NCBI GenBank assembly: GCA_032718475.1
Contig: JAUCBJ010008363.1
Span: forward strand, 1-64,000
DNA length: 64,000 nucleotides
Origin: Nemertoderma westbladi
Lineage: Eukaryota; Animalia; Xenacoelomorpha
Reading direction: 5' to 3'
This document shows positions 1-14,871 of this stretch, piece by piece. The translations under genes and the position numbers were made by a program. The notes under the pieces were generated by a model, which did no database searches, had not been told where the DNA came from, and saw nothing but the letters and a program-made list of their open reading frames with translations. Each line of letters starts with the position of its first letter. Within the stretch, counting starts at the first letter, position 1.

Positions 1-980
1 CGATGACCGATCCCTTCGGGGTTCGTGAGGGGTGGGACGGACATGCGAAAGGGCTGGCCACAGGACTGGTTTGACAAGGACTGCCCTTAGCGGTCCCTGG
101 CCAACTGCAGCTACTACGAGCCTGAAAAGGACTCGGAACGCTGACTGCTTGTGTCAGGGATTTGCGACGGGCACCGACGGCCCCTTAGTAGCCAAGCCGT
201 TCTGGGTCTCGATGATCGAACCCCGGGGTTCGTGAGGGGTGGAGCGGACACGCGAACAGGTGGCCAACTTAAGACTGCCCCCTGACCTAAGCCGTACTGG
301 TTCTCGATGACCGATCCCTTCGGGGTTCGTGAGGGGTGGGACGGACATGCGAAAGGGCTGGCCACAGGACTGGTTTGACAAGGACTGCCCTTAGCGGTCT
401 CGGGTCAACTGCAGCTACTACGAGCCTGAAAAGGACTCGGAACGCTGACTGCTTGACTGTGATTTGCGACGGGAACCGACGACAGACCCCTTAGCCAAGC
501 CGTTCTGGTTCTCGATGATCGTTCCCTTCGGGGTTCGTGAGGGGTGGAACGGACACGCGATGGGGTCGAAAGACAAAGGACTAGACTCGACTAGACTCTA
601 CTGGCCTACCGACTGTTCGGAGCAGTTTCTCGGCTGCCGAAGCGACTACGAGCCTGAAAAGGACTCGGAAAGCCTAGGTGGTTGGGTTTCTGTGATGAAC
701 TGACGGACCCCTAGCCAAGCCGTTCTGGTTCTCGATGATCGAACCCTTCGGGGTTCGTGAGGGGTGGAACGGACACGCGAACGGGTCCACCGACACGACA
801 GACTCCTAGCCAAGCCGTACTGGTTCTCGATGACCGAACCCTTCGGGGTTCGAGAGGGGTGGTACGGATACGCGACAGAGTCTACCGACTGGACCGACCC
901 TTAGCCAAGCCGTGCCGGTTCTCGATGATCGTTCCCTTCGGGGTTCGTGAGGGGTGGAACGGACACGCGACAGGGTCGAC
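1..980 (+). ncRNA. Putative structured-RNA array: 7 type-A hairpin modules (one cut by the window edge) and 3 type-B modules
   Basis: Type A is [stem]-TAGCCAAG-CCGTTC..TTCTC-GATGAT-CGAACCC-TTCG-GGGTTCG-TGAG..GAACGG-ACACGCGA-[stem'], at <1-54, 179-265, 277-358, 485-567, 705-788, 800-883 and 895-978. The type B core ACTA-CGAGCCT-GAAA-AGGACTCG-GAA lies in ~82-173, ~387-473 and ~600-700. Closing stems differ between copies but stay complementary. G-U pairs and UUCG/GAAA loops favour the + strand. Expression is not shown. Confidence 0.6.
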
Positions 981-1367
981 CGACACCGACACTACGGCAC
1001 TAAGACTGGGACTGAGGGAAAATCTGGGGTACATTAGGTAGGCTAAAATTCTGAGCGAACAGTGGGTTATTAAATAATATACCGTAGGGATTTATATTAT
1101 CGTGTATACTTATTGTGAATATTTGGTGTATATTGATTTGGGGAAGCCCAAAATTATTCTTAATCAGGTTTCAACAGGTTTTCAACTATAGGAAGTTACA
1201 TTAAAGAGTATATCCAACTAATGCAGCTTTTCTCAACCGCAAACTTGCATCTTAGAAATATTCCCTCCCCACAATCAATATCCGGTGACTGGCCGGGGCT
1301 CGGTGGTCTGTTAAGTCACGTCTCCAGCATCGGCGTTTTTTCCCCTGGTGTAGGAATAACGGCAACA
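1..1367. mobile_element. End of an LTR-like (TGT...ACA) element inserted into the Polinton ATPase gene
   Basis: The ATPase frame reads ...RDLLII and loses similarity where Walker B DD is expected. The junction coincides with GGCAACA (1361-1367; TGTTGCC on minus), a typical integrase-processed end. The other end and the TSD are outside the window. Confidence 0.55.
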
Positions 1368-1630
1368 ATAATTAATAAATCTCGACTATTCACTAAAGTA
1401 TCTATATTTTCAGGCAAGCCTTTGTAAAGGTGTGTAATACCGGGAATAGTTGGTGGATTGCTCCCGTAACAATACAATACGCGCAAGGGAGCTTCGTTGA
1501 AGCAGCCATTCTTGTGTTTAATTAAATTCCCCACAAAAGTTGATTTTCCAGAACCAGATGGGCCTGAAATTATCATACTTGTTCCCATTTGAAAGTTTAA
1601 ATTATATGGACCTGAATTAAAGTCAGCCAT
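1368..1630 (-). pseudogene. Polinton-type DNA-packaging ATPase (A32/FtsK-like), N-terminal part, interrupted at Walker B
   Basis: MIISGPSGSGKSTFV (Walker A), then F...P.RVLYCYG, KGLP and LLII, the pattern typical of Maverick ATPases. The residues VAVIPTPGEK onward are read-through into the insertion. Confidence 0.8.
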
Positions 1631-1862
1631 TTATTATTATTATTATTAAGATATATCAACAATACAATACAATATAATATCAATATCAATATCAATATCA
1701 ATAAACCATCACCATTACTATGTATGTATATAACAATAATTGACGGAACTACAATAATATTAGAGTACTGTATATTTAATTAACATATAACACAACTACA
1801 GTATGCGACGCTCGCTGCAACAAAAGGTGCTATTTCCAATTATAGTATAGACTGATGTAATT

Positions 1863-2315
1863 TCAAGCATGGTGAGCATCTTTATACGCGAAATAATAAT
1901 AGGTAACATCGGCGGTTTGGAAATCACTTCCTGAGAATTTCGCGCTAATGATTTTTTTATGTTCGCTGCTAAAAAAATAAGGAATATAATAGCAACACCT
2001 TCGGACAACATTTCTAAAAAAAATATTCTCCAATATTGTAAATAAATCTCCAGGATCATTACTTTTCGCAGAAATATAAGTTATATTGCGAAGCTCTTTC
2101 CAATAAAAGGGCTGGTAACTTACCAACTTTATATTAAACTTAGATATGGGTGCGCGACAAATAGGACAAATTTTAGAACAATAATTATTCATTTCGGAAT
2201 ATTGTACAATACATTGTACGCAAGTTGCATGTTTATTTTCACATTTATAATAATCTCGATGTTGTTGCAATAAATTAGAATAGCAAACTGGGCATTTTTC
2301 ATTTAAAATATCCAT
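1863..2315 (-). CDS. RING-finger (C3HC4-like) protein, probable viral-type E3 ubiquitin ligase
   Basis: CPVC-x13-CENKHATCVQC-x13-CPICR. The likely ATG is at 2315 (MDILNEK), giving about 150 aa. Confidence 0.7.
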   Translation of the reverse strand: MDILNEKCPVCYSNLLQQHRDYYKCENKHATCVQCIVQYSEMNNYCSKICPICRAPISKFNIKLVSYQPFYWKELRNITYISAKSNDPGDLFTILENIFFRNVVRRCCYYIPYFFSSEHKKIISAKFSGSDFQTADVTYYYFAYKDAHHA

Positions 2316-2475
2316 TTTTCCAAATTTTAAAGTAAATTGAAAATAATTACCACAATACACAACAACAAACAAAACTGTTATACTGTATATACAAATACTA
2401 CTACAATTTTCGATTATTTAAAAACATTAAAATTTTATATATTATCATAAAATATTTATAATATAGGGGGAAAAG

Positions 2476-2901
2476 TCAAGAATCAATGATATTATCCGTT
2501 GATTCTTCAGTTTCGACAAAGGATTCTTTTGAAATCATTACAATAAAGAAAGACATAATTTTGTAGGGGCTATGTCGATTTAGCCGAATTTCAAACTTTT
2601 CACCAACTTCGTTGTATTGTGTAATAACAATAAACCCCTCTATCATGGATAATAGTAAGATGTTGTTTAATTTTCCCTCTTGCTCAACTTTCCGGTTGTA
2701 ATCTAAGAGATGAATACTATTATCAGAAGCATCAATATCGATTGAGCTTAAAACTTTCCTGGCTTTTTCAGAAAACTCAATTTTATATTTATCATCTCCC
2801 TGGCGGTAAATTGTATAATCAATAACAATATAGGCTTGACCATCTTCTGCAAAAAATGAATGCCTTACTATTGGCATAACCATATCGGAATCGGAAGACA
2901 T
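2476..2901 (-). CDS. Hypothetical 141-aa protein of the Polinton-like element
   Basis: ATG-initiated open frame in very AT-rich DNA, co-oriented with the RING and ATPase genes, with protein-like composition. No motif recognised. Confidence 0.55.
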   Translation of the reverse strand: MSSDSDMVMPIVRHSFFAEDGQAYIVIDYTIYRQGDDKYKIEFSEKARKVLSSIDIDASDNSIHLLDYNRKVEQEGKLNNILLLSMIEGFIVITQYNEVGEKFEIRLNRHSPYKIMSFFIVMISKESFVETEESTDNIIDS

Positions 2902-3069
2902 TATTTAATTTATTTTATTGTAAATCAAACAAAGTAAAAACTTTTTAAACTAAAACCATTACAAATGATTAATTGTGATTAAAGCGAGAGATTATATATA
3001 AGATATTTTCAACAAAAATAATACAGGTCTTAAATAAACTGAGAAATATCCTAAATTCCGTTTATTGAT

Positions 3070-3623
3070 TGGTTGATTAGCCGGTAGGGAAATACAGTAC
3101 AGTACAGTACAGTACAATTAAATAAAAAATTACGGTCGAGGTTGAGCGACTATGGAAATGTTCGTATACGTGTAGCTGGAAACGTGGTGGAATTTCACGT
3201 ATCCTACTGCTGGACTGGTAGGCTGCTTGGTTGGTTGGTTTGGTGACAGCCGTCGAGGAGTAACGGTGGGTAAATAATCGTTGAGTTGGCAATCGATATA
3301 ATATAATAGCGTGGTGGGGGCTAGCCACGCATCGTGAAATTAGGTTACGCGCGAAGATGAATATGCGATGGTTGGTTGATGCAACGACTCGAACCAATAC
3401 AGACGCTTGGTAACAGCTGTAGGAGTAAGGCAGGCATCGTGAGGTTAGGCTACGCGTAGGTGATACGCAGCGATTGGTTGAAGGCAACGAGGCGAATCAA
3501 TATTGATGGTGACAGATGGTGTAATTTAGCAACGGAATTTGTCATTTTTCATAGCCCTCCGAGATGTAGCCCGTAGCCCAAGCTAGGGAGGACTATGCTG
3601 GGGTCACCTCTTCCTCTACTACT
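3070..3623. repeat. Probable terminal inverted repeat region of the Polinton-like element
   Basis: GC-richer non-coding block between the last ORF and the ACTACT end. It contains (TACAG)n at ~3093-3116 and a diverged ~105-bp duplication (GCATCGTGA...GGTTGA.GCAACGA at ~3329 and ~3434). The partner TIR is not in the window and the inner boundary is approximate. Confidence 0.5.
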
Positions 3624-6612
3624 TATATCAAGCCCTTCAAACGCCTGCTCAGTGGTGCGGACCACTGCGGATGACAACCAGGACACCTTCTCAAAAGAGG
3701 TGATAGATAACATCAAACGAGACATATACATGGATGACAATTTAAAGTCCCTTCCATCAGTAAAAGAAGCCATTGATGTCGCGAAAGGAACGGTTGAGTG
3801 TTTGAAAAGAGGTGGATTTCGACTGACGAAGTTCACCAGCAACTCCCGTGAGTTTCTGGAAGCCATACCTGTAGAAGACCGGGGAGCAAAAGACCTCGAC
3901 TTAATACATGACGATCTTCCGGTAACCAAGACGCTTGGCTTGAAGTGGGACAACGAAAGAGATATCCTGTTTTTTCAGCTAAAACAGCGAGATAATCCAG
4001 TTCGGACCAAACGGATTTGTTTGAGTATTCTGAGTACTTATTTCGATCCCTTGGGATTTATTAGCCCAGTTATATTGATTGCTCGGAGTTTAGTACAACA
4101 AATGTGGCTTGAAAACCACTCATGGGACGATCTACTCAAGGGAGAACTATTAAAGAAGTGGATGAAATGGGAGGACTCGCTACCTGCCATCGAGAACTTT
4201 ATAATTTCCCGTTCATATTTTGGTCATGTTCTCCCTACGTATTCCTATCAACTCCATGTATTTGGAGATGCCAGCGATATGGGAATCGGTATAGTAGCAT
4301 ACCTGCGAGTCGAAACTCCGGATGGAATCAAAGTTGCCTTGGTTACCTCTAAGGCATTGATTAACAACAAGCTGAAGGTTCCTCGGGCGGAGTTAAAAGC
4401 AGCTTTATACGCTACAGCTATCGGCCGGAATGTAACAGAACAAATCGATTATCCACTAGAGAAAACTGTTTATTGGACCGACGCTTTACTTGTGTTGGAT
4501 TATATAACGAATGAAGTCTGTCAGTTCAGCGTCTTTGTTACTAACAGAGTGGCCATTATTCTTAGTTGCACAACGATAGATCAATGGAGACATTGCCCTG
4601 GTACGATTAACCCAGCTGACATCGCCTCCAGGGGAGCAACTCCACAGGAACTGATAGATACTCCTGACTGGTTGGGTGGACCCGACTTCATGAGCAAGGA
4701 AGAGGATGAATGGCCTCCTCACCTTTCTACGGCTGAGATTAGACAAGCCAAGGGAGCGGAGAAAGTCAAACCCAAAACTCGGACAAGTAAGTCGAAATTA
4801 TTTAAACCGACAATCGATCTATCTGTATTACATACTTCCGAAAACGATACTTCGGATCCACAATCCCTCGTCACAAACAAGTCTGTTGTAGAAATTAAGG
4901 ATAGAGATTGAAAATCTGGAATACCAGACGTTCCGCAAGGAATCTCACCTCTGCTGCAGAGAGCACTGCATCACTACAGTTCCTGGAATCGGCTCTGTAA
5001 AGCCGTCACATACTTAAAAAGAGGTTTTCACCATCACTACTCCAGGACGCAGACCACTAGTGATACTGCTCCAGTGACATCTGTGCAAGTTCATGTTATT
5101 AAGGATCTACCTAAATATAAAATACCCGATCGGTTTCTCAAGGAAAAGATCAGTTACCAAGAGCATGAAGAAACCAATAAGCAAATACTGAGATTCCTGC
5201 AATGCTATGAGGATTCCAATAAGTATTTTCTGTTGTTGAGAAATCCGCATATGCGCTTAAGGGATCGCTTCTCTAGCACAATGATAGATGGGTTAATACG
5301 TGTTGGAGGAAGGCTTACCAACGCCCCATTATCTTTTGACACTAAATTCCCTATACTCATTAGAAATCTTGAAGTACAAATCAAGATGATTGTCGATGTT
5401 CACAGTAAACTGTATCATGCTGGTAGAGAACGAGTTCTTAGCGAAATTCGAACTCGCTATTATTTTCATAAACCACGTAGAGCTCTGAACCAAGTTCTTA
5501 GGAACTGCATACCTTGTAGGAAAGCATTCAGTAGGCCTTTAACCCAGCGAGAGGCAGAATTACCTAGGGAACGAGTAAGCTTTTATGAACCACCCTTTAC
5601 TAATACTGGTGTGGATTTATTTGGCCCTATTGAAGTGTATCGTGCTAGGACTATAATCAAGAGATGGTGTGTCATCTTTGTCTGCATGACTTGTAGAGCT
5701 ATCCATCTTGATATGGTGAACGATCTATCTACTAACAGCTTCGTCTTATGTTTACGACGACAGATCGCTCGTTTCGGAACTAGCAACACGATGAGATCTG
5801 ATAAGGGAATGAACTTCATTGGTGCCAACAACGAAATTCAGGCTTACGTAAAGGACTGGAATCAAAGACAGGTGGACGACCAGCTACGAGTAACAGCGTC
5901 TAGCTGGACCTTTAACGCCGCCGACGCCCCTTGGTGGGGAGGAAGTTGGGAGAGATTAATTCGAAGTGTCAAGACCGCATTTCACTTTATAGTGCCGTGC
6001 CGCGCATATCTCACCGACGAACTCCTGCGGACGTTAATGGAGGAAATCGCTGCCTATCTTAACGAGAGACCGCTTATGCCAGTCTCATCGAGTCCCGATT
6101 CCCTGGAAGCGCTAACACCCGCGCACTTCCTACTTAAGAAACCCGTAGCCATGCTCCCACATTCCGAGATTGCCGACGGAGATGAATACTGCCGTCGAAC
6201 TTGGCAGCTTATGCAGTTGCTATCCCGTCGTTTCGCTGACCATTTTGAGAAACATTATCTGCCCACGCTACAACTTCGAACTAAGTGGTTTGCGCAGCAG
6301 GAAAATGTCAGCGCCGGAGACATGGTGCTTATTGTAGATCCGGACCTTCCACGTAGACGGTGGCAGACAGGTCGTATCATCGAGACGCACATCTCGGAGG
6401 ATGGTTTAGTGCGCTCAGTAGAACTCGTCGTCATGCGGCGTAACTTCAAGAAACCCGGCATAATCTTTGAGACACAACAACTCAATCGCCCAGTTGGTCG
6501 TTTATGTTTGCTGGAAAGAGATCGGGAACTCTCCGGAAACTATGGAAGGCAAGAAACTCTTCCCACGACCACCTCCCTAATTCCTCAAACATCTAGGGGC
6601 TCTTCAACGTAG
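3624..6612 (+). pseudogene. pol: BEL/Pao pol (RT C-terminal half, Pao RNase H, integrase), 5'-interrupted, one in-frame stop
   Basis: RT: SSPS, YMDD, GGFRLTKFTSNS, KTLGLKW, FDPLGFISP. RNase H: LHVFGDAS, VPRAEL, YWTDA, WRHCPGTINPADIASRG. Integrase: H-x4-H...CIPC zinc finger, GVDLFGP, RSDKGMNF, GGSWERLIRSVK, and a C-terminal YLPTLQ.R.KW...GDMVL. ORFs 3595-4911 and 5074-6612 share a frame, separated by TGA at 4909-4911. The gap encodes the conserved YSSWNRLCKAVTYLKR. Confidence 0.95.
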
Positions 6613-7153
6613 TACGTATAGAGTGGGTGTATGTCTATATTATTTTATCTATTTTATTACATTTTATATGTGAAGGTTATTATGTACTTTATTATAATCG
6701 TTTTTATTTAATTTTATTTAGTAAAATGTTATTTTAGAATATTTAGTAAATTAGTGCAATATATTAGTGTTTATTACGTACGTAATTACTTATAATATAT
6801 ATTTAGTGCGACGGCAAGAAATAATTATTTTTTCTCTTTCCTTACTGTCCGTATTATATTGTAAATGCGAGACTATAGTAAGATGACATGTCAGTACTTA
6901 TTAAAGTACAATAAAGCCACTACTATATTTAAGTATTATAGGTAGGCAGAGTATTAGGAATGCAAAGTTCAGATCCTCGTGTCTCGGCTAAACCAAGCTC
7001 TGGGTAGACCTTGGAAACGACTTGCCTCTTCACACTGACATTGCTTCGTGCGATATTGCTCTTCTACCTTATAACAAACAATACGTAGCGTGATGTCCCT
7101 CTAACAGTAGCGTAAAACGCAAATAAATCTGTTAAATCTTTTGACCATCTGTA

Positions 7154-7417
7154 ATTCTAGTCGATTAAGATATCGTGGCACCCACCGATATACTTGAAAG
7201 ACAAATTCTAGAATCAGTGGTTAACGTCCCCAGACAAGTTCTGGAATAAATCGGTGCCCATCCTAAATATTAATTTAATATTTATTAAAATCTGTAAAAT
7301 TTAGATCCTTTAAAATATTCTAGTCGATTAAGATATCGTAGCACTTACCGATACACTTAAAAGACAATTTCATAGAATTAAGGATCCTATGTCCCCAGAC
7401 CTGCTCTGGAATCAAAT
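7154..7417 (+). repeat. Diverged ~163-bp-period direct duplication with hairpin potential in the BEL 3' non-coding region
   Basis: TTCTAGTCGATTAAGATATCGT.GCAC..ACCGATA.ACTT.AAAGACAA...GTCCCCAGAC....TCTGGAAT occurs at ~7155 and ~7318. Confidence 0.8.
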
Positions 7418-8229
7418 TGTGTCAATTGTAATATCAAATAATAAAATTTCAGGGAATAAATTTGAGTTCATATTTTAATGAATTTAATAAATTGCAATTT
7501 TATACAATTTGCAATATTCCCAAAATTCCATTAATTAATAGATCACGGGAGCGGAGATTTATCCCATTGAATGTGTCAGAGTGCGAGAATCTCCAACATA
7601 TAGTCAATAGCCGATAAAATTCATAAAATCATGCATAAAGAGGATATTGACAATTAAAGAATTACTATTAAATAGCATCCCAAATCTGTATGCATGAGAA
7701 TTACCCTAATTCTACCGCTAGTTTTCCATAATGTCACCATGGCAACACCCACGCTAGAATTAGAAGCAAGTTAAAAGAACAATAAAAGGCTTGCCCCATT
7801 GCGTAGCATAAGAGGACACATAGCGCACTATTAGTATCCAAGGATACATAGTAATAACGTGACATTCTGGAAGACACTGACTAACGGACAAATGGCCTGC
7901 ATGTGTGCAGTAAGTAATGATTGTATGGAATTTGTGCGTTTATAGGTGAATGTTACTACTAAAGTGTGTTTACAGTAGCTAATCGCAATTGTAAAGTAGC
8001 CCTAACTCTACCGAGAGAACCTAAAGTGATTCAAGCCTTTGGGACGGACAGTGGAGGGACTTGTGCCGGTTGTCATTGTCGTGCTGTTGCTACATGTTGG
8101 CGTGAACACCGCGATGACGGTACATCGGCACTGAGAAACCCACTGTCCGGGGGTAAAGACTGATAGGCAGCAACGCCCGCTTGCCTAAATATTGACTCAT
8201 ACTAATATTAATAAACTCAGATAGCAGAT

Positions 8230-9582
8230 ATGATGGAATTAATAGAAGATGACCTTGGTATTAGAGAGCGATATACCCTACCTTTACAAGCGTTTGTGGA
8301 TAGCTTGATACGCGGTGAAGCCGATCCGACTATTACGGAGGACGATGGTAGTTATATCGAATCGCCTGTGTCCCAGGAGCAATTTACGCGTGAATTGGAC
8401 CATAGAAAATTTACCGCTCGCTATACGCATTGTAATAGTACGTATATGGACTTCTTAACTACCGGTCATTCTATCGATTTACACGATATGGGCTACGTCA
8501 ACTCCCACAGGGAAATGGTACTATTTACATATCCTACCCAGCGGAGGCGGAACGATAAACTGTAATTCGAATGCGAAAATTCTATTCGAAATCGATTCGA
8601 ACGAAATGACGTTCAAGAAGCGGATCTAACGCAACTCTAACGTATATTTAGAATTCTTGAGGGAAGCATTGTAACACCAAATAAATATCACCTGCGTTTC
8701 CTTTACAGGACGTACGTCTTTGGTATTATTGTGACGCATGCCCTAGACCCAACCAAGAAACGGAAAGACATAAACATCCTCGGAGACGTTGCGCTAAACA
8801 CAGTTTTACGCGTTATACTTACGGGAGTTTCGAGCGAAACCTGTTCGACGTATCACCTACGATCGCTCGTCTCAAACGATCATTAAATAAACCTATGATC
8901 GGAGTTCCGGAATACTCGGTCAGACCTCCTCATTCCCTAATGAGACCTCAGACTCTTGATCCTATTAGTATGACGGATCCTCCCGAGCTGTATTCACTGT
9001 TCAAAGATCTAGTGTTACCCTAACGATTAATCGGTAACACTCCAGCAGTGAGCTCTAGCTAGTCACCCATCTTACCTAGCCGTATTGGGACGCGGACACC
9101 TAATATCGCCATCAAACCGTGTAGTCGCCCAGTTTAATGCGATACAACCCTGCATCAAGGTGGAGGAGAGCGTTGTACGAAACAAATTAAACTCTGTTCT
9201 ATAAGGATCAGAAAAGAAACCTGCGTTTGTTCAAATAAACGTAAGTTGTAACAGCAAGTCCAAGCGATAAACGAATTGGATTTATCTCAGTTCGATTGGG
9301 AAATCCATAATCTCTAAGACGATATCGAGCTTGGACGATTATATTCTCGGCGAGGGTTTTGGACGAACGTATCCAACCATGAGCGGAGGAAAATCAGCTC
9401 GAGGAGAAGCATATCGAAACGGCGGATACACCGACCATAATCCCATACCTTCTGATGCAATCATATTGCACCCTTCACCCAGGAGTTATAGCCCTCCTTG
9501 TAAAGTGGCTCGCCCCAAAGAGAAAAAGACTCTTGCTAGCTTTAAAAAACTGCGTAAACGCCGTCCACGCAAGAAAGACTAA
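8230..9582 (+). pseudogene. Possible decayed accessory ORF of the BEL element
   Basis: Coding-like composition between AT-rich spacers. Open fragments at 8230-8565 and 9331-9582, the latter ending in the basic KKLRKRRPRKKD* about 70 bp before the PPT. No family recognised. Confidence 0.35.
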
Positions 9583-9660
9583 CTGTTTAGAGTATTTTCG
9601 TATTTTAGAAACTGTGATTTTGTATATTTTATAGACTTAAATCCCATTTTCTGGGAGCGG

Positions 9661-10866
9661 TGTAAAAGCTTTTGTGAGATAACTGATTCATTTTGCCTTG
9701 CTAACCAGTTCCCCCCAGTCGCTGAAATACTCTAAGGAAGGATCTCTGGCTTGAGTGGTGCAGGCTACCTGTTGATTGGCTGATTTGCTCTTCCCTGGAG
9801 GAAGGTTGCCCCATAGCTCTGCTTTATGTATCTGCCAATAGGATTTGAGTTGGTTTTTGATTTTGACCTATCACAGATCTACTGAACTGAATTTTCCTAT
9901 CTGTATGCTCATTCTCTGTGGTGAATGGGATCCTTTGTGAAATAAGGGTAGCTGGTATTCTTATAGTTTTGCTTATTATTCTGTCACGTGTGTTGGTTTA
10001 TTCTAAGCCAGGAACAACGGCTATAGAATCAATTCTCTGTGATTTTATAAGAAACATTAGTAGTCTTAGATTATAGAGCATATAACTGTTATCGCATCAC
10101 AACGCATCTCACATCATATCAACTCATATTCAACATGCATCTTATCAGTGTTAATATCATATCTTAACCTACCGTCTTACTGCTTTTACTGTTTGTAATT
10201 ATTTGTGTCAGTTTGTTGGATGTTATTATTTGGAGAATATCAACAAATAACCCAAATTTCCCAATTTTCTTGATACACTATAGGTTAGAGAGACAGGCTA
10301 TATATAACAATTGCGATTTATATTATTGTGGTTTGTATTGAATGTAATGCTATTTGATAGCCACTACCCGAGTCAATTGCTATTCTCTTTATGTGTGATC
10401 AAAGTCAGTAACTGTCGGCAAACCAGTGAGCAGTATTGTGCGGTACCGGTAGTGTGTATGATTGTGACTGATAGTGATAACTAAGCATTTCCTAAAGAAT
10501 GCGTCTCATATGTGAATTCTAAGACATATCGTTGCATGTAGTATAAGTCATAGCTTTGTTTACATAGATAGAGCGCCACGTCCTAAAGGAACTGTTAATA
10601 TTTCCCGAAAGTGAATAATATTTGCCAGAGATTATATATTACTGATTAATCGAATAATACATGTAGGCTTCACTGCAATAAATCTAAGCATACGAATCCA
10701 GTCTCCCGGGTTAAACCATCGGGTGAATGAACGCGCACAGGCTGGCTTCGGCTAATGTTGTGTTTATTTTGCATTAAATCTTGTCATCTTATAAAATCAA
10801 TTTACCAACAAAAGACATATAAATTTTGGCAGGTTAAACTGCTAAAGGTCTCCAAAAGCTCGTACA
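9661..10866 (+). repeat. 3' LTR (~1.2 kb) of the BEL/Pao element
   Basis: Preceded by the purine-rich GGGAGCGG (9653-9660). Starts TGTA and ends TACA, with AATAAA at ~10677. It is followed immediately by satellite sequence starting mid-monomer (ACGACATCG...). Confidence 0.7.
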
Positions 10867-11190
10867 ACGACATCGATTTTCATATTCATGACTTCTAATC
10901 CACTCCAAGAGAGAGACAATCTTAAATGAAATTCAAAAGAGCAGGTAACACTTACATTTATAGAAGTAATCAGCTGTTCTTTGCTTCGTCTTTCCCCTGG
11001 AGATGGATGAATTTTGATTGCGTCGGAACACCCCCTTTTTGAGGCTCTCAGAGTGAAGATATAAGTAGCCTATCTCCCTGTTAATATTGGTGTGTTCTAG
11101 AATATGTATTATAGTTTCATCGTATTGCCAGAGCGGCTGGAGCCGAAGTTAATATGTGATACAATAATTCACCTCAAATTTCTCAGCTAT

Positions 11191-11511
11191 TTAGCAAGTC
11201 GTAGGACTTGATTACTGTAAGAATTGCTCGTGGCTGGCTGACTGATTGATTGATTGATTGACTGACTGATCTACAGCCAAAACTACTCTAACGATTTTGA
11301 TGAAATTTTCACAGCGGCTAGATACCGCGATTCTAAGGTCCCTGGTATGTTCCGCTATTTCGTCCATGAGCCGTGGGCTCGAAAAATAGACATAAACGAA
11401 AAAACGCCATAGGCGCAATGGTAAAATAACACCAATGACAGCTTGTTGATGGAATTTACATTTCATTGATGACTTCCGACTTGCTTAACGGCGTCTTGAC
11501 GCCGTCTCTAG
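11191..11511 (+). mobile_element. Non-autonomous Helitron/Helentron-type element (HINE/DINE-1-like), ~320 bp
   Basis: Inserted in the T-run of CAGCTAT|TTCATG with no TSD. Subterminal inverted repeats AGCAAGTCG (11193) and CGACTTGCT (11478). 5' hairpin CAAGTC-GTAG-GACTTG, internal (GACT/GATT)n microsatellite, and 3' hairpin ACGGCGTC-TT-GACGCCGT followed by CTAG. Confidence 0.85.
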
Positions 11512-13328
11512 TTCATGAATATAATGAGTATTAAAGCCATGTCAAAATCCTTGGTGTTTTTCAGCAATAATTTATTAAAATCTCCTCTGATTTTCTACAA
11601 AAAACGACATCGATTTTCATATTCATGACTTCTAATCCACTCCAAGAGATAGACAATCTTAAATGGAAGTCAAAAGAGCAGGTAACACTTACATTTATAG
11701 AAGTAATCAGCTGTTCTTTGCTTCGTCTTTCCCCTGGAAATGGATGCATTTTGATTGTGTCAGAACACCCCCTTTTTGAGGCTCTCAGAGTGAAGAGATA
11801 AGTAGCATATCTCCCTGTTAATATTGTTGTGTTCTAGAATATTAATTATAGTTTCATCGTGTTGCCAAAGCGGCTGGAGCCAAAGATAATATGTAATGCA
11901 ATAATTCACCTCAAATATCTCAGCTAGTTCATAAATATAATGAGTATTAAATCCTTGTCAAAATCCTTGGTGTTTTTCAGCAATAATTTATTAAAATCTC
12001 CTCTGATTTTTTACAAAAAACGACATCGATTTTCATATTCATGACTTCTAACCCACTCCAAGAGATAGACAATCTTAAATGGAAGCCAAAAGAGCAGGTA
12101 ACACTTACATTTATAGAAGTAATCAGCTGTTCTTTGCTTCGTCTTTCACCTGGAGATGGATGAATTTGATTGCGTCGGAACACCCCCTTTTTGAGGCTCT
12201 CGGAGTGAAGATATAAGTAGCCTATCTCCCTGTTAATATTGTTGTGTTCTAGAATATTTAATATAGTTTCATCGTATTGCCAAAGCGGCTGGAGCCGAAG
12301 TTAATAATATGTGATACAATAATTCACCTCAAATTTCTCAGCTAGTTCATGAATATAATGAGTATTAAATCCTTGTCAAAATCCTTGGTGTTTCTCAGAA
12401 ATAATTTATTAAAATCTCCTCTGATTTTTTACAAAAAACGACATCGATTTTCATATTCATGACTTCTAACCCACTCCAAGAGATAGACAATCTTAAATGA
12501 AAGTCAAAAGAGCAGGTAACACTTACATTTATAGAAGTAATCAGCTGTTCGTTGCTTCGTCTTTCCCCTGGAGATGGATGAATTTTGATTGCGTCGGAAC
12601 ACCCCCTTTTTGAGGCTCTCAGAGTGAAGATATAAGTAGCCTATTTCCCTGTTAATATTGTTGTGTTCTAGAATATGTATTATAGTTTCATCGTATTGCC
12701 AAAGCGGCTGGAGCCGAACTTAATATGTGATACAATAATTCACCTCAAATTTCTCAGCTATTTCATGAATATAATGAGTATTAAAGCCATGTCAAAATCC
12801 TTGGTGTTTTTCAGCATTAATTTATTTAAATCTCCTCTAATTTTTTACAAAAAACGACATCGATTTTCATATTCATGACTTCTAACCCACTCCAAGAGAT
12901 AGACAATCTTAAATGAAAGTCAAAAGAGCAGGTAACACTTACATTTATAGAAGTAATCAGCTGTTCGTTGCTTCGTCTTTCCCCTGGAGATGGATGAATT
13001 TTGATTGCGTCGGAACACCCCCTTTTTGAGGCTCTCAGAGTGAAGATATAAGTAGCCTATTTCCCTGTTAATATTGTTGTGTTCTAGAATATGTATTATA
13101 GTTTCATCGTATTGCCAAAGCGGCTGGAGCCGAACTTAATATGTGATACAATAATTCACCTCAAATTTCTCAGCTATTTCATGAATATAATGAGTATTAA
13201 AGCCATGTCAAAATCCTTGGCGTTTTTCAGCAATAATTTATTAAAATCTCCTCTGATTTTTTACAAAAAACGACATCGATTTTCATATTCATGACTTCTA
13301 ACCCACTCCAAGAGATAGACAATCTTAA

Positions 13329-14871
13329 CCCTATTAGTACCGGGCTATAAAATGTTGTACAAATACCGGGGGGGGGGGGGTCATATTGACCTCTCCCTCT
13401 AAAATCTACAAATATTAACGAAAACGTCTGATTTTTTGTTTGTACGTAGGTATCACTAGTCTGGATCCGACCGAAAAAAATTTTCGAAAAAATGTACTGG
13501 GGTGGTTATATTGTGGCACCAAAATTACAAGTAGTGCACAATTTTCACAAAATTTGAAAGTTATATTTTCGGCTAATTATTTTTCGATACAGGTTTTCTG
13601 GGGTGCAAAATACATTGGAAAATATTTAAAAATAATATGATTACAATAAATTGCTGTTTAGTCCTCTCTGCGTAGGAAAAAAATGAAAAAAACAAGTAAC
13701 CAGCACTTTTCAGTTAGAACACAAAATTTTTAATTCACTTATACGATGCTATAAATTCACATTTTCAGGTTTTCGAGGGCGCTGATTCTAATGGAATACA
13801 TTTCTATTATGCCAGATCATTGCTACTTGTATTTTTTGGCGTAATTTGGCAAATTTTGGTGCTAGCACCAAATTTCGTACCCATCACCAAAAAGTACAAG
13901 TTTGCGATGTCCAGTGCTGTTTTTATTGATTCCATCGGATTCAGGACCCTCATAAACCCGTATAACGCAAGAAACAAGGTGATACTATCTACTTATCAAT
14001 TTGCATATTTTCCAAAATTTGGTGCTGGCACAGCAATTTTCACCCACCGGCGAAAAATACAAGTTTGAGAACTCTTATGGAATTTTTACAGATTCCATTG
14101 AATTCAGAACCATCACAAACCCGTATAACGCAAGAAACAAGGTGACACAATCAATTGATATATTTGATGGTTTTCAAAATTTGGTGCTAGCACCACATTT
14201 TGCACCCACATCCAAAAAATACAAGTTTGAGATGTCTAGTTTGATAATTATATTTTCCATTGAATTCAGAACAGCCATAAACCTCTAAAACTCAAGAAAT
14301 AAATTGTCACAAGCAATTTTATCTATTGAATGGATTTTCAAAATTTCGTGCTAGCACCAAAATTTGCACACAGCACCGAAAAATACAAGTTTGATACACT
14401 TGGTGCAACTCGTATATATTTCATCGAATCCAGAACCCCAAAAAACCCCAATTGCGTAAAAAACAAGTTTCAAACAATCAATTTACAAAATTGACTTATT
14501 TCAAAATTTGGTGCTGGCACCAAAATTTGGCACCCACCGAAAAAAACAAGTTTGAAATTTCTAAATCAATTTATATGAATTCCATCCAATTTCAACACCA
14601 AAAAACCGTTGTAAATTAAAAATAGAGATGTTACAATTCATATTTAATGAAATGTAATTTTCAAAAAAAGTGCCAAAAGTAGGGTTAAAAAATGGTGCTA
14701 TAACTCGAAAAGTACCCAATATTTTTGAAAACGGTTTTCACTTCTAGGAAGACAATAGATTTTTAGGAAAAGTCACAAAATTTCAGATTCCCAACTGCGT
14801 TTGTTTCAGAATTATAATAAAAAAACCACGGGGGTGGTCATATTGACCCCCCCCCCCCGGGTTTAATAGGG
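13329..14871. mobile_element. Non-autonomous piggyBac-type DNA transposon (MITE-like, 1543 bp)
   Basis: TTAA duplicated at 13325-13328 and 14872-14875. Ends CCCTATTA...TAATAGGG, extending imperfectly to CCGGG. Subterminal G-run/GGTCATATTGACC/C-run motifs at both ends. No transposase ORF. A matching empty site is at ~26113-26125. Confidence 0.92.
13850..14660. repeat. ~163-bp internal tandem repeat (about 5 copies) with a palindromic core inside the piggyBac-type element
   Basis: AAAATTTGGTGCTAGCACCAAAATTT-like palindromes at ~13852, 14015, 14177, 14341 and 14503, each followed by AAATACAAGTTTG and ATTCCATTGAATTCAG-like motifs. Confidence 0.85.

Follow-up and report, generated by a model that had tools for sequence, protein, structure and literature searches.

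A tandem array of structured modules, probably a new RNA, in a likely Polinton/Maverick-like element

RESULTS

The first kilobase of the window (the whole 64-kb stretch of DNA analyzed here) carries an array of structured-RNA modules, and the observation, originally made in a sequence-only reading, is confirmed as real. The array very probably represents a selected RNA fold, and it is probably a new structured RNA. It is assembled from motifs already known, and structured RNAs encoded by viruses are familiar as a kind; for the repeated, shuffled multi-motif architecture in such elements, no description was found in the literature searched.

Ten modules follow one another over bases 1 to 978, all on the + strand, in the order A0 B1 A1 A2 B2 A3 B3 A4 A5 A6. 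Type-A modules (n = 7) measure ~84 nt and type-B modules (n = 3) ~90 nt, with GAC-rich linkers in between. As the sequence-only reading had counted, a covariance model of type A retrieved exactly seven copies from the 64-kb window, all on the + strand, and a type-B model retrieved the three B copies; both models were built from the array's own modules, so that these matches arise by construction and the informative part is that no further copies appeared. The window starts inside A0 (1 to 54, model match 1 to 56), a truncated module of the A2 subtype, and the array is therefore longer than seen. A0 is followed by a GAC-rich linker (55 to 81) that is the same as the A2-B2 linker, and the A0-B1 and A2-B2 units are identical over their first 95 of 95 bases. 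They arose by a recent duplication, which means that A0 and A2 cannot count as independent copies. The complete type-A modules are A1 (179 to 265, model match 179 to 263), A2 (277 to 358, match 273 to 360), A3 (485 to 567, match 481 to 568), A4 (705 to 788, match 702 to 788), A5 (800 to 883, match 797 to 883), and A6, the final one (895 to 978, match 892 to 978). The array has 60% GC, falling to 35% beyond a GAC-rich tail (979 to 1015, + strand) and ranging from 28 to 35% just downstream of the first kilobase. A coding role was rejected, the longest stop-free + frame being 92 codons. The three studies yielded 4,022, 1,083, and 78 variant contigs, respectively, and a synthetic-construct origin was rejected on that ground.

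Three-dimensional motifs of the modules

A type-A module contains a 4-bp C helix closed by C-G, a GAU bulge, tandem G.A and A.G pairs, and a helix capped by cUUCGg. In A4, the C helix pairs 730-733 with 761-764, the bulge occupies 734-736, then come G737.A760, A738.G759, and U739.U758, and the cUUCGg loop lies at 746-751. The C helix is present in all six complete copies, and the seven bulge and G.A letters are invariant in 7/7, which is unsurprising because about three-quarters of the core columns are invariant overall. All seven copies have the 3-nt bulge and tandem G.A/A.G between C and NC helices that define the standard k-turn in the available part of PMC5061560. Every A module thus carries a box C/D-like k-turn sequence, with a predicted kink. 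The 3b.3n pair is U.U in four copies, C.U in two, and C.A in one. According to the accessible text of the same source, k-turns with 3b=C or 3n=G fold in ions alone, while box C/D k-turns fold only with L7Ae (PMC5061560); since only the 3b=C forms fit this published rule, four of the seven k-turns are likely protein-dependent. As to the cUUCGg tetraloop claimed in the sequence-only reading, the array does hold six, compared with three in the remaining 63 kb, but the A1 tetraloop lacks UU. Similarly, of two unpaired segments said to be conserved, TAGCCAAG occurs in five of the six complete modules and CACGCGA in only 4/7.

A second loop of the A modules resembles the 11-nt GAAA receptor, with which it was compared through the available parts of PMC2615604 and PMC10243134. 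All six complete modules have the C2-G10 pair, the A4-A5 platform, and G6 paired with U7 or C7; the departures concern the U3.A8 core and the C1-G11 pair. U3 is found only in A2 (1/6), whose CUAAG/CAUG loop is the nearest to the receptor and whose 1-11 position is C.C, the other modules having C3 and G-C. The two receptor-loop positions that distinguish A0 and A2 change together. Such changes cost over 2 to 2.5 kcal/mol in the receptor, as given in the accessible part of PMC10243134. With C.A at the core step in five of the six complete copies, the A loop falls outside strict receptor membership and strong docking is doubtful.

The UA/GA internal loop, which we take to be loop-E-like, occurs basally in five A modules (A2 having GA instead) and in B1 and B2, again below the B apex, and flipped in B3, four unrelated positions in all. 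The basal AGUA/GAA of A1 has the bulged-G/loop-E pattern. The loops under the main stems (95-150 and 715-778) recall, in our view, the J5/5a hinge of the P4-P6 domain of the Tetrahymena intron. In A modules (e.g., 705-794), the closing stem is followed by UAGCCAAG, with ACCG after the 3' arm, a layout resembling the acceptor stem, the start of the D arm, and the NCCA end of a tRNA. A T arm is absent from the A modules, and a tRNA origin was rejected, ARAGORN finding 0 tRNA genes; a remote tRNA-like ancestry is still conceivable.

All B modules end in a GAAA tetraloop. B1 (82 to 173) is a long hairpin with a basal UA/GA loop, a 13-bp stem, and an inner CUA/GAA loop. The B modules keep one apex but rebuild the helix beneath it: B2 (386 to 475) differs from B1 on both arms and is still paired, and B3 (614 to 700) keeps the B1/B2 apex on an unrelated 10-bp helix, in which 5/10 pairs are G.U, with a flipped GAA/CUA loop. 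In one contig of sequencing run X6, the B loop is swapped from CUA/GAA to UUA/GAC, the same swap by which A modules differ among themselves. The C121-G130 pair below the GAAA stem is broken in one X6 contig, with both bases changed to A. Changes of these two letters to A are found in a large share of copies, and they make up a frequent alternative version of the B apex.

Paired changes and folding

The six copy-specific closing stems named in the sequence-only reading are all present at the coordinates given there. Its inner-stem covariation holds in part, as the swap is intact in A5 and the same swap is broken in A2 and A6. With a 28-pair hand structure on a seven-row alignment, 93.1% of 173 cells pair, against 30 to 55% in slid-register controls. 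Four of the 28 pairs change on both sides (1.5 ± 0.9 in shuffles, 4/500 as high), one of them belonging to the closing stem of A1, which aligns poorly. In the top stem, U.U stands at two pair positions, in 2/7 and 4/7 copies, respectively. This test is supportive only, because the shuffle control takes no account of relatedness and the hand structure was itself derived from these sequences.

Natural copies were then aligned in register, without gaps, for a sharper test against a null of random stem changes (200,000 trials for A4-A5). A4 and A5 differ at 11 positions, 7 of them in stems, with three compensatory double changes, one G-C to G.U, and no broken pair (null P ~4e-5). A4 versus A6 gave one double change and three broken pairs (null 0.11), and A5 versus A6 two double changes and three broken pairs (null 0.03), most breaks being A-U to U.U in the top stem. 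Covariation, based on the six complete paralogues of one array, is thus real but not clean, since other copies also break pairs. Together, the paired-change tests and the A4-A5 comparison support the earlier view that a + strand fold is under selection.

On the + strand, fold z-scores are -3.6 for A4, -3.0 for A5, -2.0 for A3, -1.7 for A6, -1.3 for A1, and +0.9 for A2, and -5.6, -2.1, and -2.7 for B1, B2, and B3. With RNA parameters, all nine complete modules fold better on the + strand than on the - strand, by 2.6 to 16.6 kcal/mol. That copy-specific stems prevent mispairing between modules was found to be weakly backed: three of the six complete A modules clearly favor their own closing duplex, by a margin of 1 to 1.5 kcal/mol, but A5 ties, A1 and A2 favor another arm, and the unrestricted fold of the whole array (-409 kcal/mol, compared with -392 when pairs may span no more than 120 nt) pairs across modules.

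Linkers and 3' signals

The linkers, previously described as ACCGAC-rich, are indeed rich in GAC, with 25 occurrences in 201 bases against 4.8 in base shuffles and 18.1 in dinucleotide shuffles (0/2,000 as high in either), and the reverse word GTC is absent from them. When the duplicated linker is excluded, 22 GAC remain in 172 bases (1/5,000 dinucleotide shuffles as high). The longest linker (568 to 613, + strand) repeats GAC. GAC is the RBM45 motif and the minimal m6A consensus in the available text of PMC9472474. DRACH occurs 13 times in the linkers against 14.9 in dinucleotide shuffles, and m6A is hence not favored over a plain GAC reader. In the accessible part of PMC4782049, no GAC motif is given for SR-protein export. 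Downstream, ATTAAA at 1069 to 1074 (+ strand), followed by U/GU-rich sequence, is a candidate poly(A) signal; a second ATTAAA lies at 1200 on the + strand and none on the - strand within 1-1330. Between the two hexamers, at 1137-1152 (+), a small 6-bp hairpin precedes U-rich sequence.

The carrier element

Tail to tail with the array and 300 bases from it, an A32-like packaging ATPase gene (1316 to 1630, - strand) encodes 104 aa, compared with ~200 to 250 aa in its relatives; it is broken near 1368, where other copies continue into different sequence. The fragment has 160 relatives at E ≤ 0.001 (best E 1e-8), mostly without a protein name (10/10 looked up), and Pox_A32 matched 7 of the 15 relatives scanned, 6 of them above cut-off. 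The fragment itself matched only generic P-loop models, a PDB profile search likewise gave generic P-loop matches only, and word searches with it and with the 142-aa open reading frame (ORF) below gave no relative. Maverick ATPases are A32-like in the available part of PMC5803895. Two further ORFs on the - strand belong to the same repeat unit as the array: a RING-finger-like ORF (1863 to 2417), with Pfam RING matches below cut-off, and the 142-aa ORF (2476 to 2904), for which no family or homologue was found. The visible piece is bounded by the window start and by a separate element, a Pao/BEL retrotransposon pol remnant (3577 to 6612, + strand), which presumably points to an animal host.

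At least half of the array words are present in five runs from three studies of a single organism. Contigs bridge A6 to the ATPase flank (949-1098 and 1069-1345 in run X5, 917-1357 in X6), including one 886-nt contig of depth 5.7 in X6. Contigs also span B3-A4, A5-A6, and A6 with the AT-rich flank and run on to 1345-1357 at similar depth (205, 172, 159, and 133 in X5), and the repeat unit continues evenly to ~3200. The array is therefore an integral part of a multi-copy unit, which bears out its proposed carriage by a mobile element. Some array contigs of run X3 have depths of 4,000 to 9,000 and rare forms 10 to 35; we infer some hundreds of element copies, a rough figure made without a single-copy baseline. 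As shown by joints from 184 to 807 and from 171-182 to 791-803 and by loose ends at the B apex, module order differs in other copies, which also include one or more additional B-like contexts. Run X6, the only run suspected to be RNA, covers 30/30 bins between 880 and 10700, spacer and Pao DNA among them, and hence behaves like trace genomic DNA that is uninformative about expression.

The carrier is likely a Polinton/Maverick-like element, an assignment we keep short of certainty because the other hallmark genes lie out of view. Of the five Maverick hallmark genes, the ATPase alone is seen in the visible piece; pPolB, integrase, cysteine protease, and capsid genes were not among the 10 ORFs scanned of 78 listed. 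As the window begins inside the array, no promoter or upstream gene is visible.

The rest of the window is repetitive. Many Pao/BEL copies skip a 1.7-kb stretch (4766-6472) in all four runs examined and are likely a non-autonomous deletion family. A very high-depth repeat (8096-9735) has short ORFs without a Pfam or PHROG match, and its part at 9408-9735 reaches a depth of 34,587 in X5, far over its neighbors. Most of 10830-64000 is filled by a 415- to 417-bp satellite, in which 291-, 324-, 362/364-, and 381-bp deletion variants recur like higher-order repeats; an inverted block begins at ~62100, and a 163-bp tandem repeat (4.6 copies, 72% alike) is inserted in it at 13850-14591.

Searches for known relatives

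As previously suspected, the array belongs to no known Rfam family: Rfam 15 gave 0 matches at gathering threshold in 1-12000, and 4 weak matches of 13.6 to 16.6 bits in 1-1500. The eukaryotic SECIS has an AAR loop 10 to 14 nt after AUGA; an AAR loop at that spacing gave 0 matches on either strand in 1-1330. DNA pattern searches of viral contigs returned 9, 0, 1, and 40 single-match loci and those of prokaryote genomes 0 and 3 loci, all taken as chance, and the metagenome search returned one locus inside a bacterial-type coding stretch. On 11 + 3 + 40 of these loci, the A model reached at best 19.5 bits, against 58 to 112 for true modules, and on 40 loci the B model gave one match of 16.2 bits, taken as chance. 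Neither a blastn search of 60-1010 against phages and plasmids nor ATPase-anchored locus searches in viral contigs gave a relative. These blanks weigh little, because none of the collections contains animal genomes. No structured-RNA array in Polintons was found in the literature searched at the level of titles and abstracts; the element's DNA could still be present in Repbase, Dfam, subscription papers, or supplements.

DISCUSSION

We tentatively propose that the array works in cis, within the 3' portion of a + strand Pol II transcript, as a multivalent RNP scaffold on which L7Ae-family and GAC-binding proteins would stabilize or export the element RNA. This model, which we hold with less than even confidence, starts from the module anatomy, the paired changes, the k-turn sequence of the A modules, the GAC-rich linkers, and the ATPase linkage, all directly observed, and the later steps are deduced. 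Modules would fold locally, one by one, during transcription, and each A k-turn would recruit an L7Ae-family protein (15.5K/Snu13, L30e, or SBP2 type). The linkers could be recognized by a GAC reader, for instance RBM45, or be m6A-modified, while UA/GA loops and contacts between GAAA loops and receptor-like loops would pack the domains. The protein-coated RNA would be protected and exported, as an intronless element RNA would need; avidity would be tuned by module number, and the transcript would end at the ATTAAA at 1069. The idea of a protein-binding scaffold, already raised from the sequence alone, thus gains concrete candidate sites in the k-turns and GAC linkers.

A further model, which we judge unlikely, is that the array is a natural RNA origami, in which interchangeable domains (k-turn, UA/GA, GAAA loop, receptor-like loop), with number and order evolving through recombination, would fold into a protein-coated cage or ring for packaging or RNA traffic. 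If true, such origami RNA would be a new class of RNA of eukaryotic virus-like elements and the first for Polintons.

It is decidedly unlikely that the modules are stand-alone Pol III transcripts of the VA RNA kind, serving as trans decoys for antiviral RNA sensors, Dicer, or 15.5K. Polintons are relatives of adenoviruses, and a type-2 Pol III gene has an A box, a B box ~30 to 60 nt apart, and a T-run terminator. An A-box-like 11-mer does lie 8 bases into five of the six complete A modules, B-box-like GWTCRANNC occurs in A1 and A4, and the first T4 run on the + strand comes only at 1179. Nevertheless, the B box is found in only 2/7 modules and just 14 bases behind the A box, and the same UA-GC letters recur, unaccompanied by an A box, in B modules and face GC-GA on the opposite arm as in an RNA loop. 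The lack of T4 runs is unremarkable, as only ~1.4 would be expected at 19% T.

Improbable in our view is a self-assembling RNA ring or cage in which the GAAA loops of B modules dock in the receptor-like loops of A modules, the arms are bent by k-turns, and the whole might serve the neighboring packaging ATPase as a pRNA-like scaffold. One chain does hold GAAA loops (three B) and receptor-like loops (seven A), the ATPase is 300 bases away, A2 keeps the C-G, U.A, and AA-platform core, and the two positions differing in A0/A2 co-change. Against docking stand the C.A core step in five of the six complete A modules and the C.C outer pair of A2; module number and order vary among copies, which is awkward for a fixed-size ring, and we know of no A32-family motor that uses RNA, which counts against a pRNA-like role.

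A DNA-level element, whose single-stranded DNA hairpins would provide a replication origin, an enhancer, or sites for recombination in the manner of baculovirus hr arrays or attC sites, is very improbable. Polintons are thought to replicate via single-stranded DNA, modules recombine among copies, and in DNA too G.T is better tolerated than A.C. However, the + strand advantage falls to -1.2 to 4.7 kcal/mol with DNA parameters, and both the cUUCGg and the UA/GA loop rely on contacts made by the 2'-OH. The same dependence is described for the k-turn in the available part of PMC5061560.

A new self-cleaving or ligating ribozyme class in tandem copies has a small chance in our estimate. The internal loops are conserved with tertiary-type motifs, and ribozyme arrays occur in mobile elements; but neither a catalytic consensus nor a conserved pseudoknot was seen, the sole candidate pseudoknot pairing breaking by eye in A1 and A6, no Rfam ribozyme matched even at E 10, and RNA cleavage answers no clear need of a DNA element. 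The ribozyme-like class put forward earlier thus finds no support. Smaller again is the chance of a neutral GC-rich repeat whose arms were homogenized by template switching or inverted-arm conversion. The window is full of repeats and some copies have several broken pairs, but template repair predicts perfect pairs rather than kept G.U, a k-turn, and one loop motif at four unrelated positions; the A4/A5 result and the module junctions common to runs of three studies at high depth also speak against it. The least probable is a small-RNA precursor cluster processed by Drosha/Dicer, since its ~85-nt hairpins followed by CNNC-type linkers, a feature of such precursors, come with 4-nt apical loops, a kink, several internal loops, and loops conserved as much as the stems.

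Polintons/Mavericks are widespread virus-like animal elements known almost only through their proteins, and a kilobase-scale RNA of repeated 3D-motif domains would extend their biology by a non-coding layer and give them a counterpart of adenovirus VA RNA. Moreover, with its paralogous domains in one molecule, the array is an unusual case in which nature itself has experimented with modular RNA design, and in which k-turn, receptor, and loop-E variants with known energetics allow folding and protein-binding rules to be tested on natural variants.

Among known systems, adenovirus VA RNA is likewise a GC-rich structured RNA beside packaging genes in a related virus lineage; it is a single Pol III unit of 160 nt that has good A and B boxes and a T-run, whereas the array is at least 1 kb of shuffled modules. 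CTE/RTE export elements and SECIS have stem-loops, repeated and with conserved internal loops, near the transcript 3' end, and SECIS uses a k-turn; the array is similar in its repeated stem-loops and differs by having no AAR loop and no Rfam match and by sitting in a DNA element, not a retroelement. The large ornate bacterial RNAs ROOL, GOLLD, OLE, and raiA are, like the array, dense in UUCG/GNRA loops and 3D motifs, whereas the array is eukaryotic, a beads-on-a-string of two repeated module types without an Rfam match. With Polintons/Mavericks, as far as the available part of PMC5803895 goes, the carrier shares the A32-like ATPase and many genomic copies, the hallmark genes beyond the ATPase being out of view. 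With the 11-nt GAAA receptor (accessible parts of PMC10243134 and PMC2615604), the A loop shares the order of C-G, AA platform, G-C/G.U, and one bulged base, with GAAA loops nearby, although its core U.A is C.A in five of the six complete copies and its outer pair is reversed or mismatched. Finally, unlike the box C/D and U4 k-turns bound by 15.5K/L7Ae, those of the array sit within a closed cUUCGg hairpin, without guide sequence, and are repeated at least seven times in a mobile element; they share with them, in the available text of PMC5061560, the 3-nt bulge, the tandem G.A/A.G, the C-G at -1, and, in 4/7 copies, the U.U 3b.3n pair.
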